Shown: positions 301-15,001 of the stretch, piece after piece
How positions within the stretch are numbered: position 1 is the stretch's first letter
Layout: every line of letters begins with the position of its first letter
From: a virus
Lineage: Duplodnaviria > Caudoviricetes
Direction: 5' to 3' (one strand)
Length of the DNA stretch: 28,550 nt
IMG/VR virus record: IMGVR_UViG_3300034149_000104
Location: 1 to 28,550 of that record
Made by a program: the position numbers and the translations under genes
Notes under the pieces: model-generated
Told to the model about the DNA's origin: nothing
Seen by the model: only the letters and a program-made list of their open reading frames with translations
Databases searched by the model: none

Positions 301-305
301 AGTCC

Positions 306-344
306 TTGACGCGTGGAACACGACGCGCTAGAGTACCGGTCATG
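306..344 (+). promoter_or_regulatory. Class A sigma70-type leaderless promoter, copy 1
   Basis: TTGACG(306)-17 nt-TAGAGT(329)-7 nt-ATG(342). Confidence 0.8.
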
Positions 345-620
345 AGCGCCCGAGGTAAGCCCCCGACCGACCGCTGCGGAACCGTCGACCCTGACTCCCG
401 CCTCGGCTCGACCTGCATCCTGACGACCTCCAACCCTCACGGTCACGTCGAACACGTCTCCCTCGGCTCCCGCTGGCCCGAGCCCTGCCGTAACTGCGGT
501 CGGACCGACCGGCTCCGCACCCCGATCCGCCTCGACGACGGCTCCCCCGCCTTCGTCCGCTGCGTGGACGCCCTCGGCTGCCGCGCCGAGCAGGAACGTC
601 AAGACGGCCATGCCGGCTAA
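342..620 (+). CDS. Hypothetical Cys/His-rich (Zn-binding) protein
   Basis: ATG at leaderless position; CRNC and C-x4-C motifs. Confidence 0.7.
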   Translation: MSARGKPPTDRCGTVDPDSRLGSTCILTTSNPHGHVEHVSLGSRWPEPCRNCGRTDRLRTPIRLDDGSPAFVRCVDALGCRAEQERQDGHAG

Positions 621-924
621 GGCCCCGACGGGCTACCTCCCCTTCGACCCTCTCGCCGCCTGGTGCGAACGGCGCGGCGAGACGTCGCTCCGCGGGATGG
701 CCCGCCTCCTCGACGTCGCCGCGTCGACGGTCCGCTGGTGGATCGAGAACGGGCTCACCGACTCGACCGCCGACGACGTCGCCACGCATATCGTCGGGGA
801 ACACCCGTCGGCCCTGTGGGGCTCCGATTGGGATGACCTCGCCGGCCTGACCCTCGACCTCGACGACGACTACTCGGACCTCGCCACCTGTTCGATCCGC
901 GAAATCCTGGCGACGTCGGCATGA
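610..924 (+). CDS. HTH DNA-binding protein
   Basis: SLRGMARLLDVAASTVRWW HTH pattern followed by HPSALW. Confidence 0.65.
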   Translation: MPAKAPTGYLPFDPLAAWCERRGETSLRGMARLLDVAASTVRWWIENGLTDSTADDVATHIVGEHPSALWGSDWDDLAGLTLDLDDDYSDLATCSIREILATSA

Positions 925-1148
925 GCCCGAGAGCCGCCAAGCGCCGCGCTGCGGTCCTCCTCGCGGATGGCCGGATAGGTCACCTGATCTACTGGCCGCC
1001 CGCCCCCGGGGAACCTCGGGACCTCGCCGGACGTCACGGTCGCCGCACCCGAGGTCGGACGCGGGCGCGTGTCATGCTCGACGACGGCCGCACCCTGACC
1101 CTCCCCATCCGTACCCTGACGATCATGGAGCCCTCTCATGGAGCCTGA
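921..1148 (+). CDS. Hypothetical protein
   Basis: ATGA overlap with upstream gene. Confidence 0.6.
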   Translation: MSPRAAKRRAAVLLADGRIGHLIYWPPAPGEPRDLAGRHGRRTRGRTRARVMLDDGRTLTLPIRTLTIMEPSHGA

Positions 1149-1377
1149 CTACACGGCGCTAGCCGAAGCCGACATCGCCGCCGCCTCGTCGCATCCGGCC
1201 GACCTGGCCGCCGCCGCCTTCTACGCGGCGCGGGCTCAGGCCTACGCGATGCTCGCCGTCGCGCAAGCCATCCGGGCGCAGACCACCTGGGGGGCGATGG
1301 ACGCCACGGATCGCGCCGACCTCGACGCCTACCGCGAACAGCACGCCCTCCGCGAGTCGGGCGAGGAGCCTTTCTAA
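1138..1377 (+). CDS. Hypothetical protein
   Basis: GGAG RBS; coupled to neighbours. Confidence 0.65.
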   Translation: MEPDYTALAEADIAAASSHPADLAAAAFYAARAQAYAMLAVAQAIRAQTTWGAMDATDRADLDAYREQHALRESGEEPF

Positions 1378-1883
1378 TGACCGACGTTCCGCTTCCCTTC
1401 GACGAGGCTCAGGCCCGCCTCACCGACCCGGAGACCTCCCACGAAGCCGCGGCGAGTGTCACGAACGCGGCGCGGCTCCGCTGGGTCGTCCTCGTCCGCC
1501 TCTGTCTGAACGCGCAGCGCCGGCTACAGGCCCGCCCGGGGGCCCCCGAGCCGCGATCCGAGATGTTCGACGATGCCGAATGGCTGTACGCCTGGGCTCC
1601 GGAGGTCGGCACCCCGGACTTCGCGCTCGTCGACACGCTCGACGCCTACTCCCCCTCGGGAGTCCGGACACGCCGGCACGAGTTGACGACCGCCGGCATG
1701 GTTCAGGCGATCCCCGGCTTCTACGCCCGCACCGAGACCGGCCGCCGGGCCCTGCTCTGGACACCGACCGCGATCGGCTGGCGCTACTGGTCGGGAGACA
1801 GGGTCGCCGCGATGCTCGAACGGGTTCGCCTCGCCCTCGACGTCGAGAAGGCGGCCCGAGACGTAGGAGAGGACACCCCGTAA
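1377..1883 (+). CDS. Phage winged-helix-like protein
   Basis: ARLTDPETSHEAA and SGVRTRRHEL motifs typical of a common phage wHTH family; TAATG coupling. Confidence 0.65.
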   Translation: MTDVPLPFDEAQARLTDPETSHEAAASVTNAARLRWVVLVRLCLNAQRRLQARPGAPEPRSEMFDDAEWLYAWAPEVGTPDFALVDTLDAYSPSGVRTRRHELTTAGMVQAIPGFYARTETGRRALLWTPTAIGWRYWSGDRVAAMLERVRLALDVEKAARDVGEDTP

Positions 1884-2050
1884 TGGCGGACCGATTCGAT
1901 CTTCGCAAGCTCGCGGCGGACTCACTATCGACCTCGCGCTACGACCAGCCCGGCAACGCCTCCTTCTGGCGAGCCTTGTCCGAAGCCCTTGCGTGGGCAG
2001 CCGATGAGATCGAACGCCTACGGGCAGCCGCAGGAGGGGACCCGCCGTGA
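1883..2050 (+). CDS. Hypothetical protein (MADRFDLRKL...)
   Basis: TAATG coupling; AADEIERLR motif. Confidence 0.6.
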   Translation: MADRFDLRKLAADSLSTSRYDQPGNASFWRALSEALAWAADEIERLRAAAGGDPP

Positions 2051-2553
2051 AGCGCCGGACCCTTCTCGTCATCATCGCGGTCTCGGCCGTCGTCCTCACG
2101 GCGCTCGCCGGATGCGGACCGCCACCCGGCATCCCTGTTCCTCCGCCCCCGGTCGATGTCGTAGGCGACTCGACCCTGTTCGGCGCGCAGACAGAATCGT
2201 CGATCGAAGGGGCGCGCGGCTGGTCCGGTTCCTCCCCGCTCACCTGGGCTGGGCTCGCCTCGGGTTCGCCTCGGGTCCTATGGGTCTTCGTCGGGACGAA
2301 CGGGACGGCGACGCCCGCCGAACAGGCCGCCGCGGTCGGGGCCGCCTGTCGAGGTCGGACGTGCATGGTGACCCTTCAAGGGGTCCGCCCCCTGTACGAC
2401 GCAGCGATGCGGGCGATCCCCGGCGTCGCCGTCTGCGACGTCTCGACGCCGGCCCTGAACCGACCCGACGGGGTGCATCCCGACAAGGCCGGCTCCTGGT
2501 GGCTCGCGCAGCGGATCAAGGGCTGCCGGGGTGCGCTCCTCGGCCTGCCGTGA
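2047..2553 (+). CDS. SGNH/GDSL hydrolase lipoprotein
   Basis: Signal peptide with lipobox LAGC; blocks VVGDS, VGTN and DGVHP. Confidence 0.75.
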   Translation: MKRRTLLVIIAVSAVVLTALAGCGPPPGIPVPPPPVDVVGDSTLFGAQTESSIEGARGWSGSSPLTWAGLASGSPRVLWVFVGTNGTATPAEQAAAVGAACRGRTCMVTLQGVRPLYDAAMRAIPGVAVCDVSTPALNRPDGVHPDKAGSWWLAQRIKGCRGALLGLP

Positions 2554-3248
2554 CCGTCGACGCCGCCGCTCACCCGGCCCGCTACACGCCCGCCCTGCTC
2601 GACGTCATCGCCGACAGGCTGACCGGCTGCCGTCTGATCCTCGACCCCTTCGCCGGGACAGGGGAACGGCTCGCGCTCATCGCCGAACGGTCAGGGTCGG
2701 TCGCGGTCGGGGTCGAAATCACGGCGGTCTTCATCGAACGGCCCGACATCGTCGCAGCCGGCGACGCCACCTGTCTCCCCTTCGCCGACGGCACCTTCGA
2801 CGGGGGCTGCTCTAGCCCGACCTACGGGAACGGGATGAATGACTCCTTCGTGTCGTCGGCCTGGGAGACGTCACGGCGTCACACCTACTCGCACGCGATG
2901 CGCGCCCGGATCGGCGACCGGGAGGCCCGCCTCCCGGCACGGTCCACCGCCCGATGGCACTTCGACACGGACGCCTACCGCGACCTTCACGTCGCCGCCT
3001 GGGGCGAGGTCGCCCGAGTCCTCCGCCCGGGAGCGCCCTTCGTCCTGAACACGAAGAACAGCGCCGACCGTCGCCGTAGCGGCAGGGTCGCCTCGTCACC
3101 CGTCACGGCCTGGCATCGGGCCGTCCTCCGTTCGGTCGGCTTCGACGAGGTCGACCGGATCGAGGTCACCGCCGCCGGGCTCCGTCACGGCGCTAACCGG
3201 GATCGGGTCCCCGTCGAGGACCTGACCGTCTTCCGCCGCGCACTCTAG
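2550..3248 (+). CDS. DNA amino-methyltransferase (N4-C/N6-A type)
   Basis: HPARY, ILDPFAGTG (SAM binding), GVEI, GDA and SPTY (SPPY-like catalytic motif); GTGA overlap start. Confidence 0.8.
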   Translation: MTVDAAAHPARYTPALLDVIADRLTGCRLILDPFAGTGERLALIAERSGSVAVGVEITAVFIERPDIVAAGDATCLPFADGTFDGGCSSPTYGNGMNDSFVSSAWETSRRHTYSHAMRARIGDREARLPARSTARWHFDTDAYRDLHVAAWGEVARVLRPGAPFVLNTKNSADRRRSGRVASSPVTAWHRAVLRSVGFDEVDRIEVTAAGLRHGANRDRVPVEDLTVFRRAL

Positions 3249-3286
3249 CGGTACCATCCGACTACGACCCCCGAGGAGACCCCACC

Positions 3287-3826
3287 ATGCCCGTCGCCGT
3301 CGTCGCCGCCCTAGACGTCATCCTCACCGATACCGCCACGGTGGCCGGCCGTGAGCGGCCCCGACACGCCTTCATGCTGTACGCCTGCGCCCGAGACGAG
3401 GAGGGGGCCCGCGAACGGCTCTACGGCAGCCTGATCGAAGTGATCGCTCCCGCCCTCACCTTCACGGCGGAACCTCAGCGCGGCGAGTTCGCCTCCTGGG
3501 CGCTGATCTACTATCAGCGGCCCGGCTACGCCCTCGGCGACGTCGCCCCGTCTCGCATGAGTTGGGCGGCCCGCGTTCAGGACACCGACGGAACGTCACT
3601 CCCCTTCCTAAAGCGTGACCTCGCCCGGAATCGTCTCCGGGTCGCCGAGCGGCTCGTCCGGGAGTGTCGGATCGCCGGAGCCCTCCCGTACCGCCTTGTC
3701 CCGCCGTCGTTCCGCCCGGACATTCTCCCCCCGCACCCGATCCTGATGCCCGAGTCCGTCCCCGGCGACCCGCTCGGCGTGCTCGTCCTCGGCGAACGGT
3801 CTCAGGTCGAGGGGGTCGGGCTGTGA
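3287..3826 (+). CDS. Hypothetical protein
   Basis: GAGGAG RBS; TACCAT -10-like hexamer at 3252. Confidence 0.65.
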   Translation: MPVAVVAALDVILTDTATVAGRERPRHAFMLYACARDEEGARERLYGSLIEVIAPALTFTAEPQRGEFASWALIYYQRPGYALGDVAPSRMSWAARVQDTDGTSLPFLKRDLARNRLRVAERLVRECRIAGALPYRLVPPSFRPDILPPHPILMPESVPGDPLGVLVLGERSQVEGVGL

Positions 3827-4104
3827 ACGACTGTCCCTGTGGCCTAGAGCCCCGCCGTCCCGGGCAGCGCTACGGGCTGGCCTGTCACCGGGCGGCGCAG
3901 CGCACATACCGGGCCCTCGACGCGGTCGAGCCGCCCGCCCCCGGCGAGGCGACGATCACGGTCGTCGTCCGGGTCCCGGAGAGTGTCGCCGTGGCGACCG
4001 TCGCCTGGATGACCGACCGTCTCCCCGGCTACGGCTCCCGGGAACGGGTCACGATCCGCCGGCATGGCCGCCGGCCCGAACATTGGAGATTCGATGATGA
4101 CTGA
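3823..4104 (+). CDS. Hypothetical protein
   Basis: GTGA overlap; Cys-containing N-terminus. Confidence 0.55.
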   Translation: MNDCPCGLEPRRPGQRYGLACHRAAQRTYRALDAVEPPAPGEATITVVVRVPESVAVATVAWMTDRLPGYGSRERVTIRRHGRRPEHWRFDDD

Positions 4105-4375
4105 CTCAGGGGAGCGGCTATTCCCGGCGCTCGTCGCGGCCGGCGCGGAGCCGACCTGCGGGAACTGTCGGCTCGGGCGACCCTCCCCGAACGGGCCCGA
4201 CGTCATCTCGTGTCGCGCTCGCCCGCCCGCCGTGTTCGTTCATGACGTGTTCGTGTCGCACGGTCACGCCCTGACGGGGGACGGGCCGATCAAGGCGACA
4301 CAGATTCTGTCGGAGTTCCCGACGATCCCCGCCACCGAATGGTGCGCCGAGCACCGCTACCGGGGAGAGTCCTAG
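4094..4375 (+). CDS. Small Cys-rich phage protein
   Basis: CGNC...CRARPP...FP...WCAEH pattern; GGAG RBS. Confidence 0.7.
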   Translation: MMTDSGERLFPALVAAGAEPTCGNCRLGRPSPNGPDVISCRARPPAVFVHDVFVSHGHALTGDGPIKATQILSEFPTIPATEWCAEHRYRGES

Positions 4376-4376
4376 C

Positions 4377-4967
4377 GTGGCCCTGTGCAATCCGCTCCGG
4401 CCGTGTCACTGCGGCGCGGACGAATGGGCTCCCGTCAGGCTCGCCGCCGGCCCGGTCCTCTGCGTCCTGTTCGCCTGCTGGACCGTGACCGTGTCGACGG
4501 TCCTGTTCGTCCCGCTCCTCGCCGCCGCGGTGGCCTTCACCCGGTCGACCTGGCGGACGATCCCGACCGTCTCCGCCGGAGCCCTGTACGGCTTCGGGAC
4601 GATGGCGGTCGCCGGGACGACGGGTCAGGTCCTCGGCGCGATCGCCGGTTCCGCCCCGGTCGCCGCCGCCGCCGCCCTGTATCTCGTCGCTCATGACCCG
4701 TTCGGCGAGGAGGCCGCCCGGAGCATCGTCGTCGTCCGTCGCAGGGAACCGCCCGCCCGGATAGACCATGTGGGCACGAGCCGCTACGACCGGCCCCGTC
4801 GCCGGCCCCGCTGGACCGCCCCCAGACTCCCCAGAGCGACGACCATCGCTCAGGCCGCCTACAGACGCCGCACCCCGACCCCGCCGCCTCCACCGGCCGT
4901 AGAACCGCCGATCGAGACGACCGCCATAGAAAGGCCCCGCCGTGAACTTCCGCGACACTGTCCGTGA
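4377..4967 (+). CDS. Membrane protein with Pro/Arg-rich tail
   Basis: Three to four hydrophobic segments. Confidence 0.6.
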   Translation: MALCNPLRPCHCGADEWAPVRLAAGPVLCVLFACWTVTVSTVLFVPLLAAAVAFTRSTWRTIPTVSAGALYGFGTMAVAGTTGQVLGAIAGSAPVAAAAALYLVAHDPFGEEAARSIVVVRRREPPARIDHVGTSRYDRPRRRPRWTAPRLPRATTIAQAAYRRRTPTPPPPPAVEPPIETTAIERPRRELPRHCP

Positions 4968-5172
4968 CGCCTTCGGCCGAAATCTCGCCAAGGTCTACAA
5001 GCCGAGAGTCAAGGCGACTCCGCCGCCGTCGAAGCATCGGAAGCGGCTCCGTGACGGGTCGGGGACCGCTCTCGCGACGGGCCGCCGGCCGGCGGCCGTG
5101 AAGGCTGAACGTCGAGCCCGCCGGAAGATGCGGACCGCCACCCGTCGCTCACAGCGGGCACACGGCCGATGA
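4942..5172 (+). CDS. Small basic protein
   Basis: Arg/Lys-rich ORF coupled to downstream gene. Confidence 0.55.
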   Translation: MNFRDTVRDAFGRNLAKVYKPRVKATPPPSKHRKRLRDGSGTALATGRRPAAVKAERRARRKMRTATRRSQRAHGR

Positions 5173-5426
5173 TCTTCGCTCTCCTCCGGGTCTTCGCCGA
5201 TATCTGCCTGCTCGCCGGCCTCGGTTACGTCCTCGTCGAGACCGCCCGGCTCGATAAGGAAGTGCGGCGGCTCTCAGCGAACGAGCACGGCCTCGACGTG
5301 ATCGCCAAGCACACGGACGCCCTCACCGCCGAGACCGTCGCCCTCGACGCCGTCCGGGCCGAACTGGACGCCCTCACCGCCCGCATATCCGTGACCCCCC
5401 CGAAGGAGACCCGCACCGATGCCTGA
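5169..5426 (+). CDS. Membrane-anchored coiled-coil protein
   Basis: N-terminal TM helix; ATGA overlap. Confidence 0.6.
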   Translation: MIFALLRVFADICLLAGLGYVLVETARLDKEVRRLSANEHGLDVIAKHTDALTAETVALDAVRAELDALTARISVTPPKETRTDA

Positions 5427-5670
5427 TCCGACCGCCGTCTGGCACGTCCCCGCCTTCCTGATCCCCGGCCTCATGGCCGTCATGCTGGCCGGCTTCCTCG
5501 CCCTCGCGTTCGGGGCCGTCCGGTATCGGGCGAAGCGCGCCGAGCCCCTCACCCGAGCCGAGGCCGTCCGCGTGTTCCTCCGCCTCGACCCTGACCCGGA
5601 CCTCGCCCGCCGGACGACCGTCGTCGACCGCGTCCCGGTGGAGTCGATCCGTCGCCAGATCACCCGATGA
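5419..5670 (+). CDS. Small membrane protein
   Basis: AAGGAG RBS; one TM helix. Confidence 0.6.
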   Translation: MPDPTAVWHVPAFLIPGLMAVMLAGFLALAFGAVRYRAKRAEPLTRAEAVRVFLRLDPDPDLARRTTVVDRVPVESIRRQITR

Positions 5671-6152
5671 CCGACGACTACCGCTACACGCTCCACCGGC
5701 CGGTAGGGCTACGACCAGAACAGGTCCTCAGTCGGCTCTGTTGGGTGATGCTGAACCCGTCCACGGCGACCGACGACGTCGACGACCCCACCATCCGCCG
5801 CGTGATCGGGTTCACACGGCGGCTCGGATACAACTCCCTGATCGTCGTCAACCTGTTCGCCCGCCGAGCGACCCGCCCCGCACATCTCGCCGACCCCGGC
5901 GACCCGGTTGGCCCCGAGAACGATCAAGCGATCGCGTCCGCCGCCCGCACGTCCGCCGCGATCATCGCCGCCTGGGGATCGCACGGAGCGGACCGGGCCC
6001 TCGCCCCGCGACGGGCACACGTCGAGGCCCTCCTGTTCCAACAGCGCGACCGCGGGCCCGTCTTCTGTCTCGGCTACACGAAGGGCGGACAACCCCGCCA
6101 CCCGCTGTACCTCCCCGCCGACACGCCCAGAGTCCGCTACGTCCCGGCCTGA
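5667..6152 (+). CDS. DUF1643 family protein
   Basis: VMLNPSTA, DDPTIRR, NLFA-RAT, IIAAWG and PRHPLY motifs. Confidence 0.9.
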   Translation: MTDDYRYTLHRPVGLRPEQVLSRLCWVMLNPSTATDDVDDPTIRRVIGFTRRLGYNSLIVVNLFARRATRPAHLADPGDPVGPENDQAIASAARTSAAIIAAWGSHGADRALAPRRAHVEALLFQQRDRGPVFCLGYTKGGQPRHPLYLPADTPRVRYVPA

Positions 6153-6155
6153 CCG

Positions 6156-6578
6156 ATGGGACTCGCCGGGGCTCACGTCTCAACCTCCCGAGCCGGATCG
6201 CTCGGCATCATCTCGATCGACGGGCTTCCCGACATCGAAGCGCATCACGGCCGCGGCTGGCAGGCCCACTACGGCGACCGCCTCTACCGGGACCGGACCC
6301 TCGCCCGCCTCGCCCGCCAGATCAGAGACGACCTCCTCGCCGGACCGAAGACGAACCATCGGCAGACCGCCAAGAAGCGGGGCCCGGCGAAGGGGAGAGG
6401 AGCGAACCGCTACGACCGGGCCGCCCAAGTCCTCGACAAGATCAGCCAACGCAACCCCGACCACACCCATCCGCCGCTCGACGACCGGATAGGCCGCCTC
6501 GACCCCCAACCCCCGCCCCCGAACCGCTACGACCGGGCACACCCCCAACCGCCGCCACCCGATGCCGACCGCCACTAA
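6156..6578 (+). CDS. Hypothetical protein with repeated NRYDRA
   Basis: ORF fills the gap before TerL; low-complexity 3' half. Confidence 0.4.
   Translation: MGLAGAHVSTSRAGSLGIISIDGLPDIEAHHGRGWQAHYGDRLYRDRTLARLARQIRDDLLAGPKTNHRQTAKKRGPAKGRGANRYDRAAQVLDKISQRNPDHTHPPLDDRIGRLDPQPPPPNRYDRAHPQPPPPDADRH
6403..6538 (+). repeat. 19-bp exact direct repeat CGAACCGCTACGACCGGGC
   Basis: Copies at 6403-6421 and 6520-6538. Confidence 0.85.
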
Positions 6579-7617
6579 CCCCCGCACCCGTCCTGTAGTT
6601 CCTGCCGGTACACGCGCGCCCGCGCGGTTGACGCTCGCCGCCGACTGGACGACGACCCTCGACTGGATCGGGCCGGCGTTCTCGCTCCGGGAAGCGTGTC
6701 CGCCGGCTCCGGGGCTGACCTGGTGGGCTCAGGAGCCGACCCCTCGACAGCACGCCTTCCTCCTCGGCGACGAGCGGGAGCGGCTGTACGGCGGCGGGGC
6801 GGGCGGCGGGAAGTCGTCGGCGCTCCTCATGGCCGCCATGCAGTACGTCTGCGTCCCGGGCTATCAGTCGCTCCTGTTGCGGCGGACCTTCCCTCAGTTG
6901 GCGGACTCGGGCGGCCTGATCGAGCGGGCGAAGGGCTGGATGATGCCGCTCGTCGAGCAGGGCTACGCGGAGTGGCATGAGGCTCGACATCGGTACACGT
7001 TCCCGTCCGGGGCGGGCCTCTGGTTCAACTTCGCGTCGCGGAACGATGACCGCTGGAAGTTTCAGTCGTCCGAGTATCAGACGGTCGGCTTCGACGAGGT
7101 CACTCACTGGCCCGATCCGGTCGTCTACACCTATGTGGGCTTCTCCCGGGTCCGTGGCCCCGCGGTCCCCTGTCGGAACTGCGGGGAGGACGTCGAGAAG
7201 TCGACGGGCGCGTGGCGACACTCGGACGGCGACGAGGCCGACGACCGCTGCGGCGACCCTGACCCGGCCGTCGCCCTCCCGGCCTGTCCGGGCTGCGGAC
7301 TGACCCTCGCGGACGTTCCGCTTCGGACGATGGCCGGCACCAACCCGGGTGGCCGAGGTCACGGCTGGGTCAAGAAGCGGTACGGGCTCCGCCGGCTCGG
7401 CGACCGTGACCCGGAGCACATGATCCGCTACCCGAACCGTCTGTTCATCAAGGCGCTCATGGAGGACAACCCGCACCTGAACCGGCGCACCTACCGGGAG
7501 GGGCTCGCCGAGTTGGACCCCGTCGACCGGGCCCGGCTAGAGCGCGGCGACTGGGATGCGACGGAGTCGGGCCGCATGTTCTCCCGGCTCTGGATCGTCG
7601 GCGAAGAAGCGGCCTGA
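6562..7617 (+). CDS. terL: Terminase large subunit, ATPase domain only (start uncertain)
   Basis: PTPRQ, Walker A YGGGAGGGKS, LLRRTFPQL, Walker B GFDEV, TNPGGRGHGWVKKRY, DNPHL and GDWD; stops after the GRMFSRLW linker. Confidence 0.92.
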   Translation: MPTATNPRTRPVVPAGTRAPARLTLAADWTTTLDWIGPAFSLREACPPAPGLTWWAQEPTPRQHAFLLGDERERLYGGGAGGGKSSALLMAAMQYVCVPGYQSLLLRRTFPQLADSGGLIERAKGWMMPLVEQGYAEWHEARHRYTFPSGAGLWFNFASRNDDRWKFQSSEYQTVGFDEVTHWPDPVVYTYVGFSRVRGPAVPCRNCGEDVEKSTGAWRHSDGDEADDRCGDPDPAVALPACPGCGLTLADVPLRTMAGTNPGGRGHGWVKKRYGLRRLGDRDPEHMIRYPNRLFIKALMEDNPHLNRRTYREGLAELDPVDRARLERGDWDATESGRMFSRLWIVGEEAA

Positions 7618-7620
7618 CGC

Positions 7621-8029
7621 GACCGAGTCCCCTCCCACGTCTCTCGCCCGGTTGCGCTATCGGGTGCAGACGAGGTCGGGGACACGGCCGGCGCGGAGCC
7701 CGAGCCTAGACGCGAGGAGAACCCCGACCCGTCGGCCGAGGCTCTCCTGTTCGGGGCCGCCCTTGTAGGCGATGATGGCGGCCGCTGCCTGTCACTGACC
7801 CGCTCGGCCCGATCCCGCGACGCGGGCGGGCCGGCGGACTGATCCCCGAGCCGCGGTGACGTCCGGCGCTCGCAGCCCTCGGGGCCTCATGTATCCCCTC
7901 GGGTGGTTCTGCTGCTATACCGGCTCGGACGCTCGGCCTGCTCTTGACGACGTCACCCTGTCGCCCTCGGGAGGCCGGTCTCGGTCGGACCCTGTCTCGG
8001 GCGCTCCTGTCGCTCCCGGCTCCCTTGTA
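7621..8029 (-). ncRNA. Candidate large structured non-coding RNA, family unknown
   Basis: Consensus promoter upstream; no convincing ORF; at least six helices, with G-U pairs that work only on the minus strand. Confidence 0.6.
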
Positions 8030-8035
8030 AACCCC

Positions 8036-8064
8036 ATCATACGCCCCGCACTCGAGCCCGTCAA
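8036..8064 (-). promoter_or_regulatory. Strong sigma70-type promoter for the candidate ncRNA
   Basis: TTGACG(8064-8059)-17 nt-TATGAT(8041-8036). Confidence 0.8.
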
Positions 8065-8069
8065 GTGAT

Positions 8070-8099
8070 TCGGGAAGATTTCTCGGGGAATCTTTCCGA
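8070..8099. promoter_or_regulatory. Imperfect palindrome (operator or hairpin) between divergent promoters
   Basis: TCGGGAAGATTTC-tcgg-GGAATCTTTCCGA. Confidence 0.55.
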
Positions 8100-8134
8100 C
8101 GTCACCCCGAGCGGCCTGCATGTACGCTAGCGGT

Positions 8135-8446
8135 ATGGCTGCGATCCTCACTGACCGCTACCGCGAAATGGCCTCCGCCGTCCTCACCGCCGAACTGGCC
8201 GGAGTCGAACGGCTCATCGCCGACGCCCTCGCCTGGACCGATCCCCGCTACGTCGACCGGGTCCACGTCGTCGACGCCGGCCCCTTCGTCGCGCTCGACG
8301 ACCCCGAGGCCCGCTGGGCGGTCGCCTCCTGGCTCGTTCACCCCGACCGCGACCCGAACAGCCGGGCGATCTGCTCCGCTGACTTCGCGCTCGCCCTGCG
8401 CGGGCCCCGACACCCATCCGACCCTGATTGGAGCACCGGCCGATGA
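8135..8446 (+). CDS. Hypothetical protein
   Basis: TACGCT(8123)-6 nt-ATG leaderless start; ATGA overlap with next gene. Confidence 0.65.
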   Translation: MAAILTDRYREMASAVLTAELAGVERLIADALAWTDPRYVDRVHVVDAGPFVALDDPEARWAVASWLVHPDRDPNSRAICSADFALALRGPRHPSDPDWSTGR

Positions 8447-8955
8447 AGCGACTCGACGACCGCTACCGCGTGGTCCGCACCGATGGCCGCAGCGCGCCCG
8501 GCGAGAAGCACGCGGACTGCTCCTACTTCGTCCTCGACCTCACCCACGACCGCTACACGGTCCCCGCCGTGCGCGCCTACGCCGACGCTGTCCGCCTGGA
8601 ACACCCCGGCCTCGCCGCCGACCTGGACGCCCTGATCGTCGACGCCGTCTCCCGCTTCGACTTCGCGCACGCTGACGACGCCCCCGGCGGCGACCTCACC
8701 GACCCGCCCCACCGCCGCCTCGTCGCCGACGTCGCCGGCCGCGTCCTGGGCGAACTGACCGAGGACGGCCGAATCCGGCTCCTCGACGATCCGCCCGGGG
8801 CCGCGACCTGGCCCGCCGACCCGTCCGACCTCGTCTGGTCCCATGACGGGCCCATGCGGTGGTCGGACCCCGCCGCCGATCCCCCTGGCGACGTACTGGC
8901 CGTGGCTGCCGCGATGCGCGCCGCCGAGGGGACCAGGCCGCCACCCCGCGCCTAG
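8443..8955 (+). CDS. Conserved phage hypothetical protein
   Basis: YRVVRTDG...KHADCSYFVLDLTHD...AYA motif familiar from phage proteins. Confidence 0.7.
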   Translation: MKRLDDRYRVVRTDGRSAPGEKHADCSYFVLDLTHDRYTVPAVRAYADAVRLEHPGLAADLDALIVDAVSRFDFAHADDAPGGDLTDPPHRRLVADVAGRVLGELTEDGRIRLLDDPPGAATWPADPSDLVWSHDGPMRWSDPAADPPGDVLAVAAAMRAAEGTRPPPRA

Positions 8956-8964
8956 CCTCGCCCG

Positions 8965-9630
8965 GTGCTCGTCTATCACGCCGAGGTCCCCTGGCCCGAC
9001 CTCGCCGTAGTCCGAGCCTGGGACCTCGCCTCGACGAAGCCGACGAAGGCGAACCGCGACCCCGACTGGACCGCCGGGCTCCTCTACGGGGCGGCCGATG
9101 GCGAGTTCTACGTCCTCGACGTGACCCGCTTCCGGGAGACCCCGCCCGAGGGGGAGAAGCGGCTCGTCGCCGTCTCGGCCGCGGACGACGGGCTCCTGTT
9201 CCGTCGGGTCCCGATCCGAGTCGAACAGGAAGGCGGCTCCTCCGGGTCCTGGTCGATCGACGGGCTCCGGCGACGCCTGTTCGCCGGCCGCGACTTCGAT
9301 GGCGTCACCCCGAGCGCATCGAAGACCGACCGGGCCCGCCCGGTAGCGATCACCGCCTACCGCTCACATCTCCATATCCTCGACGGCCCCTGGAATGACG
9401 ACTTCCTCGACGAACTGGAACTGTTCCCCCCGGCCGCAGGCGAAGGTCACGACGATCAGGTAGACGCCCTCTCCCTCGCACACTGGTTCCTGACCGACGG
9501 CGACCGCGGCCTCTCCGGCGAGGTCGGCCCTGACGTCTCGGTCAAGGAGAACGAATGGGCCGGAGCGGGCGACGGCAGGGGCCGTCCCGGTATCGACGAT
9601 GACGCCGAGGGCGGCTGGGGGGCCCTGTAG
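8965..9630 (+). CDS. terL: Terminase large subunit, RNase H-like nuclease domain as a stand-alone gene
   Basis: RAWDLA, PDWTAG, EQEGGSSG, KTDRARP, WNDDFLDELELFP and HDDQVDA; TAGCCT-6 nt-GTG start. Confidence 0.9.
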   Translation: MLVYHAEVPWPDLAVVRAWDLASTKPTKANRDPDWTAGLLYGAADGEFYVLDVTRFRETPPEGEKRLVAVSAADDGLLFRRVPIRVEQEGGSSGSWSIDGLRRRLFAGRDFDGVTPSASKTDRARPVAITAYRSHLHILDGPWNDDFLDELELFPPAAGEGHDDQVDALSLAHWFLTDGDRGLSGEVGPDVSVKENEWAGAGDGRGRPGIDDDAEGGWGAL

Positions 9631-9641
9631 CATCCCGACTC

Positions 9642-9788
9642 ATGGCTGCTCCCGACGACTTCGACCCCGAGGCGATCCCCGAGTACCCGGGTCCCGGCGG
9701 ACCCCACGACGAGAGAGGCATGGACGTCGCCGCCGACCTTCATGCCGCGGTCGTCGCCGCCGAGGCCGCGGAGACCGAGCCCGCCTGA
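9642..9788 (+). CDS. 48-aa acidic peptide (MAAPDDFDPE...), not in the ORF track
   Basis: TAGCAT(9628)-8 nt-ATG; TGATG coupling to the endolysin. Confidence 0.55.
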   Translation: MAAPDDFDPEAIPEYPGPGGPHDERGMDVAADLHAAVVAAEAAETEPA

Positions 9789-10642
9789 TGGCCCTCTACC
9801 CGTTCGGCTACGCCGGCAACCCGCAGGGGATGGGGACGCTCCTCACGATCGAGCAGTACGACACGCTCCGCACCATCCGTCAGTTGAACTTTGAGATGTG
9901 GCGGCGCACCCGGGCGCTCATGATCTACGCCGGCTCCGTCGGAGTCCCCCTCGGCGTCGGGACCGGTTGGCGCATCCAGCCCAACCCGCCTCCCCCCGGC
10001 TTCGCGTCGCCCGGCAACTCCAACCATGAGGGCTTCCCCGCCGATGGCGTCTCCGGTGGTGCGGTCGCCGCCGATATGGTCCCCGCCCCCTCCTGGCCGT
10101 GGATGGAGGCCCACCTGGCAGCGTTCGGGCTCAGGTCGTTCCGGAACGTCAACAGCGAGCCGTGGCATATCCAGCCGTGGGAGATACCGGCATCCCGCAA
10201 CTACCGGCGGGCTCCGTGGGTCCTCGCCCCGTTCCCGCTGCCCGGCGCGCCCACCCCGCCGAACCCCGTCCACTACAACCCGGCCGCCGATCAGTGGGGC
10301 CTGTTCCCGATCGACAGGAACAAGCCGACGCTGTCGTGGCTGTCAGGATTCGCCCCGGCGGCGACCGTCGCATGGCAGCCGCAGGTCACCTACTTCAACC
10401 ATGTGCTCGTGTTCAAGTGCCGGCAGCCGATCAAGGCCCCCTATGCGGTCTACACCGGGGCCGAGCCCGACAACCCGAACACGGCGGTCGGTGAGGGCGG
10501 CTCGATCTGGGCGCAACGCAACGTCCGCAACTTCTTCGACCCGCAGAACGCGAACAGGGCCGCCGCCGAGGAGGCATGGTACGGCGTGTGCGGTCCGGCG
10601 ACGTGGGGCCTGATCGACGCGATCGCGACGAACTTCCGCTGA
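9788..10642 (+). CDS. Endolysin, M15-like Zn peptidase with C-terminal peptidoglycan-binding-like region
   Basis: GWR, ASPGNSNH, AADM and EPWHIQ motifs; C-terminal GVCGPATW. Confidence 0.8.
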   Translation: MALYPFGYAGNPQGMGTLLTIEQYDTLRTIRQLNFEMWRRTRALMIYAGSVGVPLGVGTGWRIQPNPPPPGFASPGNSNHEGFPADGVSGGAVAADMVPAPSWPWMEAHLAAFGLRSFRNVNSEPWHIQPWEIPASRNYRRAPWVLAPFPLPGAPTPPNPVHYNPAADQWGLFPIDRNKPTLSWLSGFAPAATVAWQPQVTYFNHVLVFKCRQPIKAPYAVYTGAEPDNPNTAVGEGGSIWAQRNVRNFFDPQNANRAAAEEAWYGVCGPATWGLIDAIATNFR

Positions 10643-10643
10643 C

Positions 10644-11624
10644 GTGGCCGCCCTCCCCGGGGACGTCCTCGACTGGTCCGGCTATCGGCCCTCGCAGGCC
10701 ACGCTCGACTCCATGCCGGGCCTCGGCATCGTCGGCGTCTACCGCTACCTGTCGTCGCTCGACCCCGTCGATAAGACAGCGTGGAAGGTCCTCGGCCCGG
10801 ATGAAGACGCGATGCTCGACGCCGCCGGCCTCCCTGTGTCTCTCGTCTGGGAGTTTCACGCCGACTCATGGCGGGGCGGCTTCCCCGTCGGCCGCACCTA
10901 CGGTCGGGAGGCGCGCCGGCAGGCCCGCCTCCTCGGCCGGCCCGACACGACCCCGGTAGCGCTCGCCTTCGACGACAACCTCCAACCGGGAGACCTGACC
11001 GTCGCCCTAGAACACCAGTCCGGCTACCTCGACGGTCACGGCCTCGGCCCGCAGCCGATCTACGGTCAGGCGTGGCTTATCGACGAGATGGTGAGTCGAG
11101 GCCTCGCGCCGTGGGGCTGGCAGTCGGCGTCGACCGGCTATCACGACAACGCCCGCCTCAGCCCCAACGCCCGCCTCCGGCAGCAGGTCGGATCGACGTA
11201 CCCGCTCCCCCCGAAGTCGCATGACGTCAATACCCGCTATCACCCCGACTGGGGTCAGTACCCGAAGGAGCCCGAGATGCCCGACTACTCCCTATGGCGC
11301 GACGGATCGGGGACCGTCTGGCGTGTCGCTAGCAACGCTCAGTCGAAGGTGCCGACCTCGGGGCTGGCGCTCGACGTCGATATGTTCTGGCTCGGCGCGG
11401 GCGCGCAGATCGTCGACGGGTCGGCCGCGAATCTGACCGCCTGGCTGGCGACGATCCCGAACGGGAGGGCGGCCGTCGAGAACAGCGCGGCGGCGGCGGG
11501 CGCGGCGGCGAGCGCGGCGACATCGGCGGCCGCCGCGAAGGCCGCGGCTGACGTCGCCGCGGCGCAGGCTAAGTCCGTGTCTGATCGGCTCGCCGCCGGA
11601 GTGACGCTCCGGGCGACCGCCTAG
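10644..11624 (+). CDS. DUF1906/Rv2525c-like (GH25-like) peptidoglycan hydrolase
   Basis: GVYRYLS, GLPVSLVWE, LAFDDN, IYG, WGWQS, LRQ, DVN and DWGQ; Ala-rich tail. Confidence 0.82.
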   Translation: MAALPGDVLDWSGYRPSQATLDSMPGLGIVGVYRYLSSLDPVDKTAWKVLGPDEDAMLDAAGLPVSLVWEFHADSWRGGFPVGRTYGREARRQARLLGRPDTTPVALAFDDNLQPGDLTVALEHQSGYLDGHGLGPQPIYGQAWLIDEMVSRGLAPWGWQSASTGYHDNARLSPNARLRQQVGSTYPLPPKSHDVNTRYHPDWGQYPKEPEMPDYSLWRDGSGTVWRVASNAQSKVPTSGLALDVDMFWLGAGAQIVDGSAANLTAWLATIPNGRAAVENSAAAAGAAASAATSAAAAKAAADVAAAQAKSVSDRLAAGVTLRATA

Positions 11625-11863
11625 GGGAGCCTGGTCGGTTCGACCCTGTCGGACGGATAGTCGATCCCGGCGGCCCGGTAGGCGGCCGCGATCGCTGTGA
11701 GGGCCGCCGAGTAGGACGAGAAGCGCGCTCCCCGCTCCGGGATCGGCACGAATCGGAGCGCACGGCCCTCTGTGGGGCTCCACCAGACGCGCCGCTCGCC
11801 GGGTCCTCTCTCCGCCGGCCAGAGTTGGGAGACGCCGTAGAAGCCCTTCGGGGGGCGCTTCAC
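11621..11863 (-). CDS. Hypothetical protein
   Basis: Last gene of a coupled minus-strand cassette. Confidence 0.55.
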   Translation of the reverse strand: MKRPPKGFYGVSQLWPAERGPGERRVWWSPTEGRALRFVPIPERGARFSSYSAALTAIAAAYRAAGIDYPSDRVEPTRLP

Positions 11864-12090
11864 GATACCTCGACCGTGACCGTGACCCGGAGGGCGCTCG
11901 GGGGCTCGTGGGTGGCCTCCCAGCGGCGCATGACCCGGGTCCCGACCCAGGCCATGAGGCTCTCGTTCAGGTCCTCCATGGCGTCGGCCGAGAAGGTCCG
12001 GCCCTCCTCGATCGTGACCCGGACGACCTCCACGTCAATGGCGGGTCCCGGGAGCGCCATCATGGCGTCCCACTTGTCCTGGGCGCTCAC
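11860..12090 (-). CDS. Hypothetical protein (VSAQDKW...)
   Basis: GGAGG RBS; GTGA overlaps. Confidence 0.6.
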   Translation of the reverse strand: MSAQDKWDAMMALPGPAIDVEVVRVTIEEGRTFSADAMEDLNESLMAWVGTRVMRRWEATHEPPSALRVTVTVEVS

Positions 12091-12341
12091 GGTCGGACCT
12101 CCTCGACGGCGAGGAGCCGTGAGGCTGGGCTGAACCGGCGACGCCACCATTCGGGGCGGCCGGCGTCGTCGGCGTTCGGGTCCCATCGGACCTCGACGCA
12201 GTCCGGGGCGCAGGCGGTCCGGCCGCAGCCGGCGAGGTCCGTGACGGTCCCGAGTCGTTCGGGGCGGGCCTGTCGGACGCGGGACCCGACGTCGAGGGGG
12301 ACGCCCTCGGCGTCGAGCCGGGCGACGGGGAGCCCGGTCAT
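12087..12341 (-). CDS. Hypothetical SH3-like small protein
   Basis: VGSRV...GTV...VEVRWD pattern; coupled. Confidence 0.6.
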   Translation of the reverse strand: MTGLPVARLDAEGVPLDVGSRVRQARPERLGTVTDLAGCGRTACAPDCVEVRWDPNADDAGRPEWWRRRFSPASRLLAVEEVRP

Positions 12342-12595
12342 CCGAAGACGACCAGCGGGGCGACCGGGGCGGGCTGGCCGTGGACCCGACAGAAGGGGAC
12401 GATCGTCTCGCGGGTCCCGGTCAGGGGGGCGACGACGTAGGCGGTCAGGGTCTTGTCGACGATGACGCCGACGTTCGCGACCGTGGTCCCGAGGGGGAGG
12501 AACCCGGCCGGGATGGCGGCGGCCTGGTGGGTGGTGATGAAGGCGGGGACGTCGGCCATGAGGGCCTCCTCGGGTCGGGGAGCGGTGGTGCTCAC
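12338..12595 (-). CDS. Hypothetical protein (alternative start ATG 12559)
   Basis: GTG 7 nt after the -10 hexamer; GAGGAGG precedes the internal ATG. Confidence 0.6.
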   Translation of the reverse strand: MSTTAPRPEEALMADVPAFITTHQAAAIPAGFLPLGTTVANVGVIVDKTLTAYVVAPLTGTRETIVPFCRVHGQPAPVAPLVVFG

Positions 12596-12631
12596 GACAC
12601 GCACTCTAGCGCCGCCCCGTAATCCTGTCAA
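12593..12631 (-). promoter_or_regulatory. Class A promoter, copy 2 (leftward)
   Basis: TTGACA(12631)-17 nt-TAGAGT(12608)-7 nt-GTG. Confidence 0.8.
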
Positions 12632-12653
12632 GCGGAATCTCCGACGACACTAC

Positions 12654-12692
12654 TTGACGCCCTCGGCTCGATCCGCTAGAGTGCCTGTCATG
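12654..12692 (+). promoter_or_regulatory. Class A promoter, copy 3 (rightward, divergent from copy 2)
   Basis: TTGACG(12654)-17 nt-TAGAGT(12677)-7 nt-ATG(12690). Confidence 0.85.
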
Positions 12693-12998
12693 AGCACCAC
12701 CTACACCTACCGCCCCTCCGTCGAGGCCCCCGAGGATTCCCTCGACCTCGACGCCTACACGATCGACGCCGTCCGCACCCCGCAGGGCTGGCTCCCCGTC
12801 TATGACCGAAACGTCGAGGCCCTCGTTCGGTCCGCCGATTCCGTCATCCTCGGCGATGACGCCGGCCGGGCCCTCGGCCTGGTCGTCCCCTTCTCCTGGC
12901 TAGAGCGGATCGAGCCCGAGCCGTGGACCGACGAGGACCGCCGCCAGGCCGAGGCCGACGCCCGCTACGTCGAGATGAGAGACGAGCCCTGGCGATGA
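12690..12998 (+). CDS. Hypothetical protein (MSTTYTY...)
   Basis: Leaderless start. Confidence 0.7.
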   Translation: MSTTYTYRPSVEAPEDSLDLDAYTIDAVRTPQGWLPVYDRNVEALVRSADSVILGDDAGRALGLVVPFSWLERIEPEPWTDEDRRQAEADARYVEMRDEPWR

Positions 12999-13231
12999 CC
13001 GTCATCCGGTACACCCCGCCCCGCACCGGCTACGACCGCGGGCCCGCCCTCGACCGTCTCCGCTGTACCGACTGCGGCGACGAGCGCGACGTCCCCGCGA
13101 CCCTGACCGTCGTCCTCACGTCCTCGGGTCACCAGTGCCACGTCGCCGAATGGCCCCTCCCCGAGCCCCTCGTCCCGGCCTGCCTCGGCCGCCCGATCCG
13201 ACCCCGACCACAGGAGGTCCCCGCATCATGA
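12995..13231 (+). CDS. Small Cys-containing protein
   Basis: ATGA overlap; CTDC. Confidence 0.6.
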   Translation: MTVIRYTPPRTGYDRGPALDRLRCTDCGDERDVPATLTVVLTSSGHQCHVAEWPLPEPLVPACLGRPIRPRPQEVPAS

Positions 13232-13506
13232 CCCCATCGTCCGGCCCGACCCGATGGCGGCAAGCCGCGCTCGCCGTCATGGTCTCTCACAACGACACAA
13301 TGCGCGCCCTGATCGGTAGCCGCTGGCGGCCGCCGGGCTGGACCCGCTGGAACGGTGAGGTCATCCCGAAGCCCGAGCACACCCCGGCCGCCCTCCGCTA
13401 CACGGCCAGCGTGCTCCACCTGGAAGCGTACCGGCTCGACTCGCTCGCCCGTCAGTGCGAGAACCGCGCCGTGCAGATCGAAGGAGCCGACCATGCAACG
13501 TCGTGA
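13228..13506 (+). CDS. Hypothetical protein
   Basis: AGGAGG RBS; ATGA overlap. Confidence 0.6.
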   Translation: MTPSSGPTRWRQAALAVMVSHNDTMRALIGSRWRPPGWTRWNGEVIPKPEHTPAALRYTASVLHLEAYRLDSLARQCENRAVQIEGADHATS

Positions 13507-14191
13507 CCTGACCCCGGGAGAGGACTACGCCTACCTCCGGAACTACTCCCGCCGCTTCGACCCGGACCGCGACCTCGGCCGCTGCACCCGAGTGACCCTC
13601 GATCACTTCTCCAACGGCTACCCGGTCGTCGTCTTCCGCGACGTCGCTAACTTCCGGTCCTTCGCCGACGAGAAGGAAGCCCGCGACTACATCGCCGAGC
13701 ACGGCCTCACGGTGGAGCCCATACATCGCCCCCAATCCCGCTGGTCGTGGACCGTCCAATGGGTCGCCGACGAGGAGCCCCGAACCGTCAGCATCCGCGA
13801 ACTCCGCGCCCCCTGGGCCGTCGCCGCCCCCTACGTCGCCGCTAAGGCCGTAGCCGACGCGGAGGCCGTCCGGGTCCGCGAGGAACGTGAGGCCCTCGAC
13901 CGTGCGACGCGAGCAGCGGAACTAGCCGACCATCAGAGAGTCTCGGCGCTCAGGGAGGACGCCCGCGCCGCGGTCCGTGCCCGCTTCGGGCTCGCCCCGC
14001 ATGACCACCGCGCCAACGTCTCCGGCGATGGGGCCGGGACCTTCCTCGGGTCCCTGTCGCTCCGCATCGACGACCTCGACGCCCTCGCCGCCGGCCTCGA
14101 CGACCCCGAACAGGTCGACTGGTACGCCGTCCTCGACCTCCCCCGGCCGGCCCCCTCGTCCGCCCCCGGAGCAGGATGGGCGACATCATGA
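13493..14191 (+). CDS. Hypothetical protein with coiled coil
   Basis: AAGGAG RBS before MQRRDL. Confidence 0.7.
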   Translation: MQRRDLTPGEDYAYLRNYSRRFDPDRDLGRCTRVTLDHFSNGYPVVVFRDVANFRSFADEKEARDYIAEHGLTVEPIHRPQSRWSWTVQWVADEEPRTVSIRELRAPWAVAAPYVAAKAVADAEAVRVREEREALDRATRAAELADHQRVSALREDARAAVRARFGLAPHDHRANVSGDGAGTFLGSLSLRIDDLDALAAGLDDPEQVDWYAVLDLPRPAPSSAPGAGWATS

Positions 14192-14589
14192 ACCCGATAC
14201 TCGATCAGCGACTCACGCCGCCCGACCGTGACGGCCACCGCCACTGGATCACCTACGGCCGCGGTCGACCCGCCGCCGACGCCCCGCCCCGAGTCGGCGG
14301 CGGTATCCACGGCATCCGGGCCGCCCGCCGCGCCGTCTGGTCCGCCGCCGGTCACCCTGACCCGCCCCCCGGGAGCGCTCCCCGACCGACCTGCGCCGAT
14401 CCGGAGTGCTGCGCCCCCGATCATCTCGCCCTCACGGCACGTCGGCCCGGGCTCCCACCCGGCGAGACGATGCTCCTGATCCGCGCCGACGATCAGACGC
14501 CCGGCGTCGACCTCGCCCGCCGGCTTGGCGTGTCCCGGCAGTACGTCTCGCAGGTCCGGCCCGGCCGGTTCCCTCGGGTGTCCTCGTGA
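14188..14589 (+). CDS. Divergent HNH/His-Me homing-endonuclease-like protein with C-terminal HTH
   Basis: RAVW...TCADPECCAPDHL and LARRLGVSRQYVSQV. Confidence 0.65.
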   Translation: MNPILDQRLTPPDRDGHRHWITYGRGRPAADAPPRVGGGIHGIRAARRAVWSAAGHPDPPPGSAPRPTCADPECCAPDHLALTARRPGLPPGETMLLIRADDQTPGVDLARRLGVSRQYVSQVRPGRFPRVSS

Positions 14590-14924
14590 CCGGCTGGAAG
14601 GGCCGTGGGCCTCGGGGCCGGTACACGGCGGAGGAGAGGGCGCGGAACGAGGCGAACGCCGCACGGTTCGATATGGCGATCACCCGTTACCGGGTCCGCG
14701 TCTGGCTTGAAGGGGCGGAGGATCGCGCGTCGTGTCCGACGCTCGCCGAGTTGCGGGCCTGCGGCTACGACGCCGTACAGCAGCACGCCTGGATCGTCAC
14801 GACGGTCGACGGAGTGTCAACGGCGGAGTGCTTCTGTGGGTGGGCGGGGACGCCTGTCCTGTCCGAAGCCGCGGCGGAGGACGAGGCCGCGAACCACGTC
14901 GAGATTTCTACCCGGTACGGCTAG
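14586..14924 (+). CDS. Hypothetical Zn-binding protein
   Basis: H...CFCGW...AANH; GTGA overlap. Confidence 0.55.
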   Translation: MTGWKGRGPRGRYTAEERARNEANAARFDMAITRYRVRVWLEGAEDRASCPTLAELRACGYDAVQQHAWIVTTVDGVSTAECFCGWAGTPVLSEAAAEDEAANHVEISTRYG

Positions 14925-14957
14925 ACACGCCGGGCGGTACGCGCTAGAGTGTCTGTC
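14922..14957 (+). promoter_or_regulatory. Class A promoter, copy 4 (leadered)
   Basis: TAGACA(14922)-17 nt-TAGAGT(14945)-GTCTGTC; then hairpin CGGCCC/GGGCCG and AAGGAG RBS. Confidence 0.7.
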
Positions 14958-15001
14958 ACCGGCCCCGATGAGCGGGCCGCAAACCGAAGGAGCACCACCC
15001 G

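Follow-up and report, generated by a model that had tools for sequence, protein, structure and literature searches.

A candidate non-coding RNA of about 315 nt between the halves of a split terminase gene in a sediment phage

A phage from sediment likely carries, between the two halves of its large terminase gene, an optional and self-contained actinobacterial phage RNA gene that comprises a promoter, a non-coding transcribed region of about 315 nt and a terminator-like stem. The RNA would occupy positions 7715..8028 of the minus strand, a region that is partly covered by contigs from three environmental RNA data sets, contains no coding-like frame and matches no Rfam family, and it is probably a previously undescribed, optional RNA of about 315 nt. 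A preliminary description based on the letters alone had already proposed an undescribed phage RNA made from its own minus-strand promoter, and this proposal is supported, as the ends of the RNA contigs fit the promoter and the terminator while neither a coding frame nor an Rfam match was found. As for its function, we tentatively favour, at somewhat less than an even chance, a trans-acting decoy that binds several copies of one protein via seven ACA(A)GG motifs. Few phage non-coding RNAs of such size have field evidence of expression, and those of actinophages are without assigned function.

The window, by which we mean the whole stretch of DNA analysed, is the entire virus record of 28,550 nt (71% G+C, about 27% complete). 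In portal and terminase, it comes closest to cultured phages of Arthrobacter and Gordonia; since most of its promoters moreover run directly into a start codon, the host is, judging from sequence, likely an actinobacterium. The ATPase half of the large terminase subunit (6562..7617, plus strand; PF03237), which ends in a stop codon of its own, and the nuclease half (8965..9630, plus strand; PF17289) match non-overlapping positions of one PHROG profile (phrog_979, positions 152-421 and 434-603, respectively) and lie 1.35 kb apart (1347 nt). The longest stretch without a coding-like frame is 7618-8134 (517 nt), and the remaining gaps measure 127-246 nt except for one of 528 nt that contains an HNH gene, in line with the earlier observation of a sole long gap in a gene-dense window. 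The placement of this gap between the terminase halves was also correct, but it does not fill the whole interval, as two uncharacterised plus-strand genes share it: 8135..8446 (called protein 8120-8446), with a counterpart of 73% in the relative L218, and 8428..8955, which matches phrog_9572 in its first 70 residues and has an L218 counterpart of 89% over 94 aa. Neither a reverse transcriptase (PF00078) nor a tyrosine integrase was found in the contig, which represents about 27% of the genome. A TraB/FtsK-like DNA translocase gene with a C-terminal HTH lies distant from the terminase halves, three genes upstream of the portal (20499-22391, plus strand).

The preliminary description had placed a minus-strand promoter of the form TTGACG-17-TATGAT at the head of the gap. 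This sigma-A/70-type promoter is indeed present at 8036..8064 (-35 TTGACG at 8064-8059, 17 nt, -10 TATGAT at 8041-8036) and is the only one in 6000-10000, where 0.1 would be expected. If the 7-nt spacing seen at the contig's other promoters applies, transcription would start near 8028, and no start codon follows downstream of this start. The promoter has TTGAC and a GC run before the -10 element in common with six other promoters, yet lacks their TAGAGT-N4-GTC signature. These six, at 306(+), 12654(+), 14922(+), 18219(+), 25080(+) and 12631(-), form a family in which the -10 element TAGAGT follows GC and GTC comes right before the start, and five of the six run directly into a start codon; the shared letters exceed what sigma-A requires and may represent the site of a phage regulator. 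A further TAGAGT-type -10 element, without a -35 element, occurs at 3249(-).

Just upstream of the RNA promoter lies an inverted repeat (8068..8101; arms 8070-8080 and 8089-8099) that is, from its sequence, a possible regulator site, and letters resembling it are also found upstream of the 12631 promoter. The element GACGTCAC occurs in three copies, one of them inverted (7855-7863, 7949-7958 and 8098-8107). Two of these form a 9-bp helix of the RNA; the third lies upstream of the RNA promoter, so a role as a site at the DNA level is possible. On the opposite strand, a -10-like hexamer within 8121-8134, right before the start at 8135, is kept in L218, and the gene at 8135 may thus have its own leaderless promoter, divergent from that of the RNA. 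Elsewhere in the contig, a short hairpin leader (14958-15000, plus strand) between the 14922 promoter and a DUF932 gene bears some resemblance to hammerhead-like motifs and had no Rfam match at E up to 5.

Evidence that the RNA is made comes from metatranscriptomes. Among the 24 runs listed for positions 6500-9700, three (X22, X23 and X24; 5-6% share) are of this type, and their contigs placed on 1-20000 numbered 7, 9 and 7, respectively (n = 23). Most were partial fits only (5, 8 and 6), i.e. short chance pieces, while four of the 23 matched in full with 0 differences each. Three of these four fall into the gap, one from each run: 7760-8001 in X22, 7775-8016 in X23 and 7780-8017 in X24, none of which gives the strand. 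All three lie between the predicted start and a 15-bp stem, and neither this stem nor the promoter is crossed by any RNA contig. In X23 and X24 the gap contig is the sole full match, and X22 has one more. Since 30 of 30 bins are covered in the DNA run X9, the remainder of the 20 kb can be used as a silent stretch. For a 240-nt contig placed by chance on the 3.2-kb search stretch, the probability of falling inside 7715-8028 is about 0.025 in each run, a value to be read in light of the fact that the three runs share year and habitat, possibly stem from one campaign and were found via a stretch that contains the RNA. The contigs (depth 4.5-7.7) show neither strand, ends nor level. Taken as a whole, it is very probable that an RNA is truly made at this gap; minus-strand transcription from 8028 to about 7715 by the host sigma-A polymerase would account for it, and its level or stability appears to be high relative to phage mRNAs. 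The fourth fully matching contig (12317-12572, X22 only) lies just downstream of the minus-strand promoter 12631-12603 and thus serves as an internal control for this promoter type; it overlies a small ORF (12338-12595) at the head of a minus-strand gene run that extends down to 11621.

The 3' end is probably set by the 15-bp stem (7715..7748), a likely terminator without a U tract. As described earlier, three of its 15 pairs are G-U on the minus strand; it is predicted with p 0.99 in the fold of 8028-7715 and scores z -2.26 on the minus strand vs 0.61 on the plus strand. When a model built on the final 89 nt was run on 151 actinobacterial genomes, it matched three of them, always via this stem alone, and two of the three matches come just after a stop codon; the stem thus seems to behave as a common terminator hairpin lacking a U tract. 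The RNA contigs end 12-32 nt short of it, whereas DNA contigs span it in three of four runs, which gives a weak hint at a length of about 315 nt. Strong stems can block cDNA synthesis, and for this reason a 410-nt form is conceivable, although the 410 nt originally suggested are probably too long, as about 315 nt fits and the distal stem is uncovered by RNA contigs.

This distal hairpin (7627..7683, minus strand) would be a second terminator or a 3' extension. The terminal stem 7689-7621 of the preliminary description does exist, but since L218 keeps it without promoter and RNA, it is separable from the RNA, and no RNA contig reaches it. In a comparison of two sequences with registers set by hand, 18 of 21 registered positions pair in the window and 20 of 21 in L218. 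The two differ by two compensatory changes and two changes from U-A to U-G, and tandem G-A pairs are kept. The U-A to U-G changes and the tandem G-A favour the minus strand, whereas two inner A-C positions favour the plus strand. From these sequences, the distal hairpin is apparently kept under selection.

Most of the helices proposed earlier recurred in the predicted fold of 8028-7715, with some corrections. The helix of 8024-8016 with 7978-7969 formed with p about 0.85, and the 5' domain it closes (7969..8024), which encloses a hairpin at 8002-7989, with p 0.79-0.86. The central domain (7855..7957) is closed by the expected 9-bp helix (p 0.69; GCAG/CUGC p 0.66), but it encloses one nested hairpin (7903-7876; p 0.95-0.99) with tandem G-A pairs and a 10-nt loop, not two. 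The compound hairpin (7799..7838) was likewise predicted (p 0.9-0.99). In contrast, the GGCCGCC/GGCGGCC helix was seen only when the last 89 nt were folded alone, and in the full fold it is displaced by pairing of 7771-7767 with 7762-7758 (p 0.96). The folding energy of the 444 nt gave z -2.24 on the minus strand (3 of 100 shuffles equally good) and z 0.09 on the plus strand; for 8028-7712 (317 nt), z was -2.07. Folding beyond shuffled controls is thus present at z about -2.1 but modest, as 4 of 48 control windows of the contig (8 shuffles each) reached -2.1 or lower. The fold as a whole is a model prediction.

Relatives of the phage suggest that the RNA is dispensable. A clade-specific pattern searched over JGI metagenomes found three loci, namely two near-identical copies and L218, while distant fused genes dominated the results of terminase scans that relied on alignment. 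The ATPase half of L218 is 93% identical over 282 aa and both downstream genes are present (73% and 89%), yet its spacer after the ATPase half measures 142 nt vs 502 nt in the window. L218 keeps a counterpart of 7620-7695 but has no match to the promoter, to the RNA or to the 15-bp stem; according to the spacer comparison, the segment without counterpart is 7696..8113, with approximate break points. The L218 sequence agrees fully with the window over 254 nt before the two part ways, which raises the possibility of a recombinant or a chimera. However, the bases spanning its stop codon are seen again in run X17 and its C-terminus is that of P0002, although L218, X17 and P0002 may not be independent samples. 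A third arrangement was seen in run X2, where other sequence directly follows the ATPase stop codon. In the X2 contig matching 7430-7617, this stop codon overlaps the ATG of a would-be CxxC peptide, which by eye resembles, over 30 letters, a loop inside the ATPase half; many ATPase halves of the split clade carry an inserted CxxC...C loop.

Among the 120 best homologues, 20 ATPase halves, the window's own included, end at the same motif. In G002, a record classified as proviral, 3.5 kb separate the terminase halves, and in G001 the distance is 7.1 kb; in both, the ATPase stop is followed by ordinary genes. The split-terminase records G001-G003 (12-78% complete) contained no RNA match. On sequence grounds, the terminase split is clade-wide and old, and the space between the halves would be a landing site for accessory cargo. 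As the RNA is absent in L218 with the same split and the content between the halves varies, we regard it as cargo and not as part of the motor. It is likely optional among close relatives, where gain here or loss in L218 are both possible.

What sets the RNA apart is a repeated motif overlooked in the preliminary description. Seven ACA(A)GG motifs lie within 7746..8028 on the minus strand, starting at 8028, 8010, 7995, 7961, 7792, 7766 and 7750, vs a shuffle mean of 0.62, and seven were reached by none of 5000 shuffles. As the pattern had been picked after inspection, the test was repeated over all such patterns as a post-hoc control, and an equally enriched pattern arose in none of 2000 shuffles. 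With seven copies in 314 nt, this is the densest cluster of the contig when both strands are compared. According to the predicted pairing probabilities, ACA is mostly unpaired while GG opens a helix strand. CCGAG (8 copies) and CCCGAGGG (3 vs 0.08) were likewise above expectation, with a post-hoc control that covered the 5-mer maximum only and was reached by 50 of 5000 shuffles. No tandem array was found in 7600-8100, where the longest direct repeats are 10-19 nt in two copies each.

Repeated exposed motifs on a stable scaffold constitute the anatomy of a multi-site protein decoy, which is why we favour this reading. In this scheme, the sigma-A polymerase of the host would read the cassette in the orientation opposite to the packaging genes, and the transcript would fold, terminate at the 15-bp stem and persist. 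Its exposed ACA(A)GG motifs would, at a guess, bind multiple copies of one protein, perhaps a host regulator or a defence ribonuclease. ACA is the cleavage site of some toxin ribonucleases, and ACA motifs also figure in some defence-RT RNAs. The protein sponge put forward among the earlier suggestions is the reading favoured by the repeated motif. Against a decoy, no homologue was found that could reveal covariation or conservation of the motifs, the copies observed are identical, and the motifs might derive from old short duplications, three of them being spaced 15-34 nt apart. More specifically, the RNA could represent a new class of decoy, in which a 315-nt scaffold with seven ACA(A)GG sites titrates an actinobacterial RNA-binding regulator or an ACA-cutting ribonuclease, forms a mobile cassette in the cargo site of a split terminase, and is abundant enough to be the sole phage trace in sediment RNA; we consider this combination unlikely but possible. 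Natural relatives with and without the RNA, together with a sharp motif, make its target directly testable.

Known systems resemble the RNA in part. Abundant, stable non-coding RNAs with unassigned function have been described in actinophages, namely the Pleft RNA of L5, D29 and StarStuff (available sections of PMC5712189) and nc_1-3 of Rhodococcus phage WC1 (available sections of PMC10986025). Like these, the candidate is intergenic, has no convincing ORF, its own promoter and a length of a few hundred nt, and belongs to an actinobacterial phage. The Pleft RNA and nc_1-3 are, in the same sections, the dominant phage transcripts, whereas a high level of the candidate is only suggested by the contigs. 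As far as these sections describe them, it further differs in having no sequence match in 50,697 phage records, in its location between the halves of a split terminase, in an orientation opposite to the surrounding genes, in being optional among close relatives, and in its repeated ACA(A)GG motifs. The CsrB/RsmZ sponges present GGA in single strands or in loops of the ANGGAX type, and CsrA has little affinity for GGA that is buried (available sections of PMC4005645). As in these, many short purine-rich motifs sit on a scaffold of hairpins that has a promoter and a terminator of its own. Unlike them, the candidate is phage-borne, has no Rfam Csr/Rsm match and shows no GGA enrichment (8 vs 6.7 expected); two ACA(A)GG motifs read ACAGGA and one ACAAGGGA, while four of the seven contain no GGA, and as GG is predicted to be mostly paired in six of the seven, such a site would be buried. 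CsrA, the best-known target of sponge RNAs, therefore fits poorly and was rejected. Phage RNA decoys are known for ToxIN (pseudo-ToxI of phage TE; available sections of PMC3475682) and for CRISPR (RNA anti-CRISPRs; available sections of PMC10651486), and, going by these sections, share with the candidate that they are accessory phage RNAs with repeated short elements, optional between relatives. Here, however, there is no regular 30-40-nt repeat and no match to an Rfam CRISPR repeat or type III antitoxin; a type III antitoxin mimic or RNA anti-CRISPR with a 30-40-nt unit is thus unsupported, with neither a tandem array nor an Rfam repeat family found.

Instead of acting in trans, the locus might act in cis as a brake, in that the promoter fires against the plus-strand operon and collision or antisense RNA lowers read-through from the ATPase to the nuclease gene before late infection, while two hairpins halt transcription short of the ATPase gene. 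The promoter does point against an extended series of plus-strand genes, with two hairpins favoured on the minus strand separating it from the ATPase stop codon; it lacks the letters common to the six other promoters and may thus be on when those are off, and one split-terminase relative (G002) is classed as a provirus. We nevertheless hold such a brake to be unlikely, as the RNA overlaps no terminase codon, L218 manages without it, and neither 315 nt nor seven repeated motifs would be required. For the same lack of overlap, an antisense regulator of terL, as once envisaged, could at most be indirect.

It is also conceivable, though not likely, that the RNA has no selected function and represents a decayed accessory gene or a promoter-terminator relic whose GC-rich transcript folds and resists decay. 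Consistent with this, no homologue appeared in any search. Blastn found none in 50,697 phage records and only two matches of 32 nt in 72,556 plasmids. Motif scans, in which flanks were compared for 80 loci each in the large ones, found no homologue either: promoter plus 5' end in viral contigs (25 of 64 parts; 121 loci, best nhmmer E 3.3), the central helix in the whole viral contig collection (5 loci), a triple GACAGG in viral contigs (51 of 64 parts; 121 loci) and in genomes (4 of 64 parts; 119 loci), the 3' motif cluster in the whole viral contig collection (28 loci) and an 18-nt hairpin in genomes (0 loci). Over the 268 loci of the two triple GACAGG scans and the 3' cluster, the best nhmmer E was 3.1, and the best blastn match (E 8e-5) was a simple tandem repeat. 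In 401 genomes of the phylum of G004, 27 had short matches of 22-80 nt, none a homologue, and the single 25-nt exact genome match (L630) sits in an open frame; the unpublished G006 was counted only in the 401-genome and 151-genome tallies. Single-sequence models R1 and R2 found no homologue in 54 and 53 sources and no match in G001-G003 (12-78% complete), and R1 matched actinobacterial genomes only via the terminator stem (3 of 151). Four DNA runs contained no variant inside the RNA at 80% likeness, and every copy observed has the same sequence; interruptions of the contig coverage in X8 and X14 were not taken as absence. No non-coding RNA inside a split terminase locus was found in the open-access literature, and three motifs were absent from three of the six supplementary files of the phage RNA catalogue PMC10690425. 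The modest folding z-score, the absence from a close relative and the different cargo at the site in each relative also agree with a relic. Against it, no frame retains coding character, no terminase remnant was detected in the gap (0 of 120 homologues at E<1e-3, vs 98 matches for a control piece), promoter and terminator are both intact, and the motif excess survives the post-hoc control. As a by-product of the scans, the low-GC viral loci L353, L303, L274, L277, L323 and L327 were noticed to share a promoter with a short hairpin element downstream, whose changes look compensatory; beyond its first bases, this element is unrelated to the RNA.

A base-pairing small RNA that acts on host mRNAs with its A-rich single strands as seeds would share the promoter, the terminator-like end and the repeated unpaired purine-rich motifs of the candidate. 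We consider it improbable, as the RNA is long and GC-rich for this kind and shows no excess complementarity to the available phage sequence; its longest run of pairing with the rest of the contig is 13 nt vs 12-17 nt in shuffles. Nine nucleotides at 7794-7786 could pair with the transcription start of two phage promoters, which hints at a 6S-like RNA, but with p about 0.1 by rough estimate.

An mRNA for a small protein appears even more doubtful. The nine minus-strand start-to-stop frames of at least 12 aa in 7560-8200 had scores of -0.25 to -0.76 in the codon model of the phage; for true genes cut into 30-codon pieces, the mean is +0.31 (sd 0.22), with 5 of 103 at -0.27 or lower. The best candidate, a 32-codon ORF at 7890-7792, lies within the RNA contigs, and a purine-rich segment precedes its ATG by 4 nt. 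However, its score of -0.30 and GC3 of 0.74 (vs 0.83-0.92 in true genes) are low, its ribosome site is predicted to be paired (p 0.99), and it is not among the called proteins, which weighs little given its small size. A look-up of three gap ORFs yielded no called protein, while 8120-8446 and the nuclease half are called; the same look-up also missed 8428-8955, as its called start differs. As regards a type I toxin-antitoxin system, in which a small hydrophobic toxin gene would be expected on the opposite strand, the plus-strand ORF at 7889-8068 is not coding-like (score 0.01), matched no family (as 7856-8068) and showed no hydrophobic run by eye.

Searches for known RNA families agree with the earlier remark that tRNA, tmRNA, RNase P and intron motifs are missing from the letters. 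Rfam 15, whose families include 6S, Ms1, RNase P, SRP, tmRNA, ribozymes, introns, ROOL/GOLLD/OLE and CRISPR repeats, gave 0 matches in the window at the gathering threshold, and of nine weak matches in 7400-8300 under relaxed settings, the best had E 0.71 and 20 bits vs 83 required; ARAGORN detected neither tRNA nor tmRNA. The covariance-model check recommended at the outset thus returned no known family, and SRP, SAM-IV, HDV-like, group II domain V, H/ACA and type III CRISPR repeat assignments were unsupported in Rfam. A self-splicing intron was rejected, given that Rfam contains no matching intron, 20 of 120 homologues stop at the same motif and the spacer content varies among relatives. A template RNA of a retron or defence RT was rejected as well, with no PF00078 in the contig (about 27% complete) and terminase halves plus two uncharacterised genes as neighbours, as was translational bypass of the Hau3 type, for which the available sections of PMC10732093 describe bypassed inserts of 10 nt vs 1347 nt here.

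Finally, a scaffold akin to pRNA that keeps the two terminase halves attached to the prohead, suggested earlier by analogy to phi29, is extremely improbable: although the RNA sits between the terminase halves and its repeated CCCGAGGG elements could pair between molecules, it is missing in L218, whose ATPase half is 93% identical, and had no match in G001-G003 (12-78% complete), its strand is opposite to the packaging genes, the split terminases of cluster AY work with no RNA mentioned in the available sections of PMC11920828 and PMC12820723, and pRNA is described in those of PMC11476376 as unique to phi29-like phages. Compared with the phi29 prohead RNA as portrayed there, the candidate is likewise a phage non-coding RNA of a few helical domains, and it adjoins packaging genes, but it is dispensable in close relatives with the same motor, twice as long and without an Rfam match, and the motor here is of the TerL/portal (Mu-like) type. 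In cluster AY Arthrobacter phages, the large terminase is also split into separate ATPase and nuclease genes, which the same sections of PMC11920828 and PMC12820723 place consecutively, whereas the halves are 1.35 kb apart here, 3.5 kb in G002 and 7.1 kb in G001, with variable cargo between them. A terminase clade with halves 1.3-7 kb apart and variable cargo represents a step beyond the adjacent genes of cluster AY.
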